From: Escherichia coli
GTDB taxonomy: Bacteria; Pseudomonadota; Gammaproteobacteria; Enterobacterales; Enterobacteriaceae
Reading direction: 5' to 3' (one strand)
Length of the DNA stretch: 64,000 bases
NCBI RefSeq assembly: GCF_003991155.1
Contig: NZ_CP031293.1
How positions within the stretch are numbered: the first letter of the stretch is position 1; each line of letters begins with the position of its first letter. The position numbers and the translations under genes are program-made. The notes under the pieces were generated by a model, which was not told the DNA's origin, ran no database searches, and saw only the letters and a list, made by a program, of their open reading frames with translations. This document shows positions 62,925 to 62,938 of the stretch, piece after piece.

Positions 62925-62938
62925 TGGCGGAGAGAGGG
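62925..62938 (-). other. 14-nt match to the 3' end of tRNA-Ser (serU type); possible attachment-site core remnant
   Basis: Plus strand TGGCGGAGAGAGGG is the reverse complement of CCCTCTCTCCGCCA, the recalled acceptor 3' end of tRNA-Ser(CGA); the rest of the tRNA is absent. Confidence 0.3.

Follow-up and report, generated by a model that had tools for sequence, protein, structure and literature searches.

The window analysed here is a 64,000-nucleotide stretch of the Escherichia coli contig NZ_CP031293.1, and its feature of interest is a 14-nucleotide sequence near the right end, at positions 62925 to 62938. The genes upstream in the window are hprSR, hiuH, msrPQ, and zinT, the same neighborhood that surrounds the serine tRNA gene serU in E. 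coli K-12. Downstream is a tyrosine integrase gene that is cut by the window end. The initial annotation had described the 14-mer as the reverse complement of a tRNA-Ser 3’ end located 165 bp upstream of the integrase, with no T-arm or tRNA body, and had suggested that it might be an attachment (att) core resulting from insertion at serU. The main features are listed below by window position.

62478 to 62924, no strand: chromosomal flank, the DNA that directly follows serU in E. coli lacking the island; 95.4% identity to K-12 downstream of serU, with the 60 nucleotides adjoining the core identical.

62925 to 62938, minus (sense strand): very probably the att core distal to the tRNA, a direct repeat of the final 14 bp of serU; found nowhere else in the window, with an identical 14-mer ending the intact serU 21,936 bp away, and K-12 homology stopping at 62938.

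62939 to 63102, plus: island arm between core and integrase, 164 nucleotides; no K-12 homology, and 96.5% identity to the arm in strain CFT073.

63103 to 64000, plus: serU-island tyrosine integrase, the 5’ 898 nucleotides of a 1221-nucleotide gene (406 amino acids); annotated as a tyrosine recombinase in identical genomes, with Pfam domains Arm-DNA-bind_3, Phage_int_M, and Phage_integrase, which is the domain set of the P4 family.

On the plus strand the 14-mer reads TGGCGGAGAGAGGG, and a search tolerating one mismatch finds no other copy in the window. Shuffled sequence is expected to contain 0.01 matches to it by chance. Its reverse complement is identical to the final 14 nucleotides of serU (...CCCTCTCTCCGCCA), and the plus-strand reading of the serU 3’ end is this same sequence both in K-12 and in the genomes identical to the window, so the tRNA-Ser origin proposed in the initial annotation is borne out. 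The described lack of a tRNA body also holds. ARAGORN predicts no tRNA at the 14-mer, an Rfam tRNA search of positions 62600 to 63150 returned no match even at E ≤ 10, and the TCTAAATTTTT that follows the 14-mer is unrelated to the serU T-arm, GGATTTGAACC, found at that place in K-12. The alignment between the window and K-12 spans 62478 to exactly 62938, and its final 14 bases are the K-12 serU 3’ end. With the integrase ATG at 63103, the 14-mer and the gene are separated by 164 nucleotides, within one base of the distance first reported.

The region from 62256 to 64000 has 100% identity to at least 27 complete E. coli chromosomes, and NZ_CP041996.1 shows zero mismatches to the window over 61605 to 64000. 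NZ_CP041996.1 has an intact minus-strand serU that ends in the same 14-mer and lies 21,936 bp further to the right. Locating the intact gene and a matching repeat at its flank was the check proposed in the initial annotation; the two copies (positions 1345 and 23281 of the NZ_CP041996.1 locus, L002) are on the same strand and in direct orientation, which supports its reading of an att core derived from integration at serU. K-12 homology restarts at precisely the 14 serU bases where the left homology ended, and therefore exactly 14 bp are duplicated. An independent repeat search recovered the same pair (family D9) at the same spacing. The same island with the same far end is also present in an unrelated genome, of a bovine isolate from Japan, whose sequence matches the window locus exactly. 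No third core copy was found inside the island, which argues against a tandem array.

The bracketed 21.9 kb has a GC content of 37.9%, compared with 49.4% in the chromosomal part of the window. A synthetic join of both flanks through one core copy has an uninterrupted match in 3856 of 5426 complete E. coli genomes (71%), with up to 99.8% identity over 600 nucleotides. Since this synthetic attB is matched as one piece, the insertion was precise, and most genomes have the site empty. Of the same 5426 genomes, 420 contain the integrase together with its arm. The locus thus has the att-site properties of a tRNA-integrated genomic island: a direct repeat brackets the DNA, a recombinase is encoded inside, and the site is uninterrupted in relatives. 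The left island boundary is set exactly at 62938/62939. We are highly confident that the 14-mer is the tRNA-distal att site (attR, with the intact-tRNA junction taken as attL) of an integrative and probably mobilizable island of about 21.9 kb in the 3’ end of serU. No paper describing serU att repeats was found in the literature searches.

The island gene order, taken from NZ_CP041996.1, is integrase, a VOC-family protein, PilV, type IV pilin, TraD, MobQ relaxase, Thoeris ThsB and ThsA, RepL, two H-NS-family proteins, an AlpA-family protein, and DUF6387, followed by serU. The AlpA-family gene is thus at the end opposite the integrase. The MobQ relaxase, TraD, PilV adhesin, type IV pilin, and RepL are encoded at L002 positions 3477 to 10239 and 18443 to 18988, and equivalents are present in the corresponding CFT073 locus (L005). 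A published account states that the serU island carries no mobilization or transfer genes (PMC5521745); with relaxase, TraD, PilV, and RepL in current annotation, it looks instead like a mobilizable element. The Thoeris pair is located at L002 positions 13422 to 15486, approximately 12 kb to the right of the window end (ThsB, E 1e-85; ThsA, E 8e-203). It occupies the place of other cargo in the CFT073 island, where the TIR protein is the virulence factor TcpC.

In the canonical P4-type layout, a tRNA gene is followed by a co-oriented integrase gene. Such a textbook arrangement is present close by in NZ_CP041996.1, where a tRNA-Asn 1 kb beyond serU is followed by a co-oriented integrase. At the serU island, the integrase gene is neither directly downstream of nor co-oriented with the intact tRNA; it is tRNA-distal and on the strand opposite serU. 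The initial annotation considered this orientation unusual and suggested a rearranged or tandem element. It was correct that the integrase adjoins the partial repeat, unlike the textbook layout, while the arrangement itself is not anomalous, being the same in CFT073 and in every complete relative described below.

The integrase clade was sampled as 80 loci encoding relatives of 46 to 99% identity, with one genome per species. Nine loci have a tRNA-Ser within 10 kb downstream of the integrase gene, and it is on the opposite strand every time. In all nine, the last 13 to 15 nucleotides of that tRNA-Ser are repeated 126 to 412 bp upstream of the integrase gene. These nine complete islands are 3.7 to 11 kb in length, come from Acinetobacter, beta-, and alpha-proteobacteria, and have the intact tRNA-Ser at the end away from the integrase. 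Their repeats differ in sequence and match four tRNA-Ser anticodon types. An antisense TGGCGG[AT] is present within 500 bp upstream of the integrase gene in 62 of 79 loci, mostly 140 to 215 bp away, compared with 8 control windows, and several of the remaining loci have the same structure with variant ends such as TGGTGGA or TGGAGGA. A tRNA-Ser directly upstream of and co-oriented with the integrase gene is found at only three loci (L058, L059, and L063), all of them distant (48 to 51% identity), and in no close relative; no second repeat was found for these three in the 7 to 11 kb available. On this sequence evidence, an integrase beside a tRNA fragment is the normal geometry of the clade and not the product of rearrangement. 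For annotation pipelines, this means that an integrase adjoining a tRNA fragment can be normal for an integrase family.

One relative in the sample, Affinibrenneria salicis (L010), has two tRNA-Ser(GGA)-type fragments, TGGCGGTGAGGGAG, at 156 and 330 nucleotides upstream of the integrase gene. Its intact tRNA-Ser is on the opposite strand, 798 nucleotides upstream of the gene. This locus may represent a tandem or decayed insertion.

The proposed route to this layout begins with a circular form of the island whose attP core would be identical to the last 14 bp of serU. The reconstructed attP junction would read ...GTTGAATGAT-TGGCGGAGAGAGGG-TCTAAATTTT... The island’s own P4-family tyrosine integrase would recombine this core with serU. 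One junction would rebuild the full serU, beyond the window, and the other would leave the 14-bp fragment joined to the DNA formerly downstream of serU. The AlpA-type excisionase gene and DUF6387 would come to lie beside the tRNA. In this clade, the attP core is oriented toward the integrase gene with its tRNA-derived half on the far side, and integration would therefore always leave the integrase tRNA-distal.

The 14-mer and the island bases that follow it can be divided into three putative elements of seven nucleotides each.

62925 to 62931, no strand: TGGCGGA, proposed core-type half-site from the tRNA (discriminator, CCA, and 3 acceptor nucleotides); forms an inverted repeat with the unselected island-side TCCGCCA.

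62932 to 62938, no strand: GAGAGGG, proposed 7-bp overlap (strand-exchange) region; variable in relatives, yet in agreement with the local tRNA-Ser in all nine complete islands.

62939 to 62945, no strand: TCTAAAT, putative island-side half-site, degenerate with respect to the clade consensus TCCGCC(A), of which the window keeps only TC.

In this model, TGGCGGA would be bound by the integrase, GAGAGGG would serve as the overlap for strand exchange, and TCTAAAT would be a degenerate second half-site. The division is drawn from an alignment of 60 upstream sites, which contain TGGCGGA, seven variable bases, and then T (92%), C (100%), C (82%), and G (83%) at positions 15 to 18, commonly as TCCGCCA. 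The sites were chosen by the TGGCGG[AT] search, so the invariance of TGGCGGA is circular and only the island-side conservation counts as independent. The nearest relatives in other genera (79 to 81% identity) have perfect palindromes. By analogy, the shared pattern TGGCGGA-N7-TCCGCC(A) may represent an inverted pair of integrase half-sites flanking a 7-bp crossover region.

A broader proposal, which we hold only tentatively and consider less probable than its negation, is that the serU-type integrases are a widespread clade (Enterobacteriaceae, Acinetobacter, beta-, and alpha-proteobacteria) with a near-palindromic attP core. The universal ...TCCGCCA of tRNA-Ser would supply one half-site plus the 7-bp overlap. 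A change in the spacer alone might then retarget the island among isoacceptors, and a flip of the spacer might reverse the insertion; a flipped spacer would explain the canonical orientation of L058, L059, and L063. No statement of such a spacer-retargeting rule for the serU island was found in the literature searched. If true, the rule would be a compact means to predict or re-engineer target choice in the clade. The clade-wide core pattern is a modest by-product that makes such islands easy to search for and offers a testable model of tRNA-Ser choice.

The 164-nucleotide arm presumably holds the integrase promoter and arm-type sites. Spacing between core and integrase of approximately 140 to 215 nucleotides is kept in most of 61 relatives. 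One feature within the arm is a tandem motif.

63072 to 63094, plus: tandem pair TGTATGGCGGG / TGTATGACAGG, 12 bp apart; ends 9 nucleotides before the integrase ATG, candidate arm-type or autoregulatory sites.

A comparable pair with 12-bp spacing (often TATGTGGG) is present in 49 of 79 integrase relatives, compared with 12 control windows. The pair may serve as arm-type integrase sites or as an autoregulatory operator. No copy of the motif (up to 2 mismatches) was found in 330 nucleotides of the tRNA-proximal arm.

Three other explanations of the 14-mer were weighed. A match to the tRNA-Ser 3’ end that arose by chance, unconnected with the integrase, was raised in the initial annotation and would fit a sequence this short with no tRNA body. 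Against it are the low expected count, the K-12 synteny that places the 14-mer on the serU 3’ end up to 62938, the second copy at the intact serU, and the same arrangement in most of the integrase relatives (62 of 79); its probability is negligible, and the synteny and the recurring layout refute it. That the integrase was once adjacent to serU and reached the far end through an inversion or the fusion of two elements, as a rearranged island or tandem array, is also very improbable, though not to the same degree. The canonical layout at the neighboring tRNA-Asn speaks for such an event, as does the accretion of two integrase modules in IE3-like islands (described below). However, the island has just two core copies, the CFT073 layout is identical, and the integrase of all nine complete small islands is tRNA-distal at a conserved distance from the fragment. 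In the IE3-like island itself, the backbone order is unchanged from the serU-type integrase onward. As this order is kept while the integrase and attP module differs, the geometry is a property of that module and not of a scrambled island.

The third explanation, to which we give a chance only somewhat short of even, is that the 14-mer is a genuine but inactive att scar, from which the island can no longer excise, being passed on by vertical descent or carried along with its flanks by homologous recombination. It concerns present activity only and leaves the origin of the 14-mer unchanged. The degenerate TCTAAAT in place of TCCGCCA favors it, as do the report that the serU island is transferred en bloc together with adjacent DNA (PMC5521745) and the junctions that are the same in CFT073 and here despite approximately 3.5% divergence. 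Pointing the other way, the genomes examined have an intact integrase and AlpA, the relaxase, TraD, PilV, and RepL genes are intact, and a clean empty site is present in 71% of genomes.

Several points weigh against the 14-mer being the att site of an integrative island. The far end of the island, beyond the window, is known from identical public genomes rather than from the source genome. Excision, the circular form, the activity of the integrase, and any activity today are inferred. The assignment of half-sites and overlap is proposed from the sequence pattern and by comparison with other tyrosine recombinases, E. coli has a degenerate island-side half-site, and the relative L033 has a mismatch at repeat position 14. 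Finally, the serU island has been treated as non-self-mobile and spread by homologous recombination of its flanks (PMC5521745), and the 14-mer site may therefore be a fossil.

Some observations on the surrounding chromosome can be added. At window positions 62256 to 62477, yodB (K-12 b1974, a cytochrome b561 homologue) is absent, and approximately 995 bp of K-12 sequence from zinT to the region downstream of serU is replaced by 222 bp. CFT073 has the same 222 bp at 94% identity. On the other side of the island, L002 positions 24362 to 25866, right after serU and mtfA, contain the tRNA-Asn with a further P4-type integrase behind it, then an IS3 element and a type VI secretion cluster. The asnT site in L002 holds a second island; CFT073 has the yersiniabactin island there.

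The island can be compared with four kinds of known systems. P4-type prophages and islands (P4 at leuX, CP4-57 at ssrA) share the integrase domain architecture, integration at a tRNA 3’ end with duplication of that end, and an AlpA-type regulator or excisionase. Unlike in these elements, the serU core is inverted relative to the integrase gene, which places the integrase distally, and the identity block is just 14 bp. Williams in 2002 reportedly distinguished an ‘asymmetric 3’-end’ sublocation class of tRNA integration sites. The serU site resembles that class in that its identity block is limited to the extreme tRNA 3’ end and its integrase subfamily uses several tRNA-Ser isoacceptors, and goes beyond it in that the attP itself is near-palindromic (TGGCGGA-N7-TCCGCCA).

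The EARL (ROD21-like) islands at tRNA-Asn, including IE3 of enteropathogenic E. coli E2348/69, have a related backbone (pilV, mobQ, repL, H-NS and H-NST paralogues, and alpA; PMC6035254, PMC7074111). Both kinds of island carry the integrase and the excisionase gene at opposite ends. The EARL islands differ in their tRNA-Asn target, their repeats of 24 to 37 bp, and an integrase beside the intact tRNA, as described for EARL/ROD21 islands (PMC6035254). EARL-type and serU-type integrases share 27% identity, and the present island falls outside the EARL group as defined by its integrase and tRNA-Asn target, the target here being serU. One IE3-like island at tRNA-Asn (NZ_CP027373.1; L086 positions 16316 to 21216) has an EARL-type integrase beside the tRNA, HEPN/DUF262 cargo, and then a serU-type integrase pseudogene. 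The pseudogene has an internal stop and lacks the att arm, and the same backbone order lies behind it. This arrangement is consistent with the report that IE3 carries both integrases (PMC7074111) and looks like replacement or accretion of an integration module.

The closest known system is PAI-CFT073-serU (also PAI VII-536; tcpC, hfp/hnsB, hnsT), which has the same insertion site, 14-bp repeats, and junction sequences. Its core copies are at L005 positions 24334 and 46841, and the flanking bases match the window and L002 at both junctions. The integrase is the same (96.5% DNA identity), and the backbone blocks are collinear and 84 to 96.5% identical, in the shared order int, pilV, pilin, traD, mobQ, repL, H-NS paralogues, alpA, DUF6387, serU. 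It is described as 22 kb with 38% GC and TcpC (PMC7545054), a size and composition similar to those of the island here, and as encoding Hfp/H-NSB and H-NST (PMC7074111). The cargo differs, with a VOC-family protein and ThsA/ThsB here versus tcpC, a macro-domain protein, and a ComEA-like gene in CFT073. No tcpC is present in the L002 island, where the region holds other cargo; tcpC marks a subtype in uropathogenic E. coli rather than the island backbone, and distinct serU island types have been mentioned (PMC5521745). Given the same order, junctions, and backbone in the published CFT073 island, the sequence indicates that the last part of the window belongs to a cargo variant of the known serU pathogenicity island, with the 14-mer as its tRNA-distal junction. 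Both this type of feature and the island itself were already known, and the finding is real but ordinary; the variant carries a Thoeris anti-phage system in place of tcpC.
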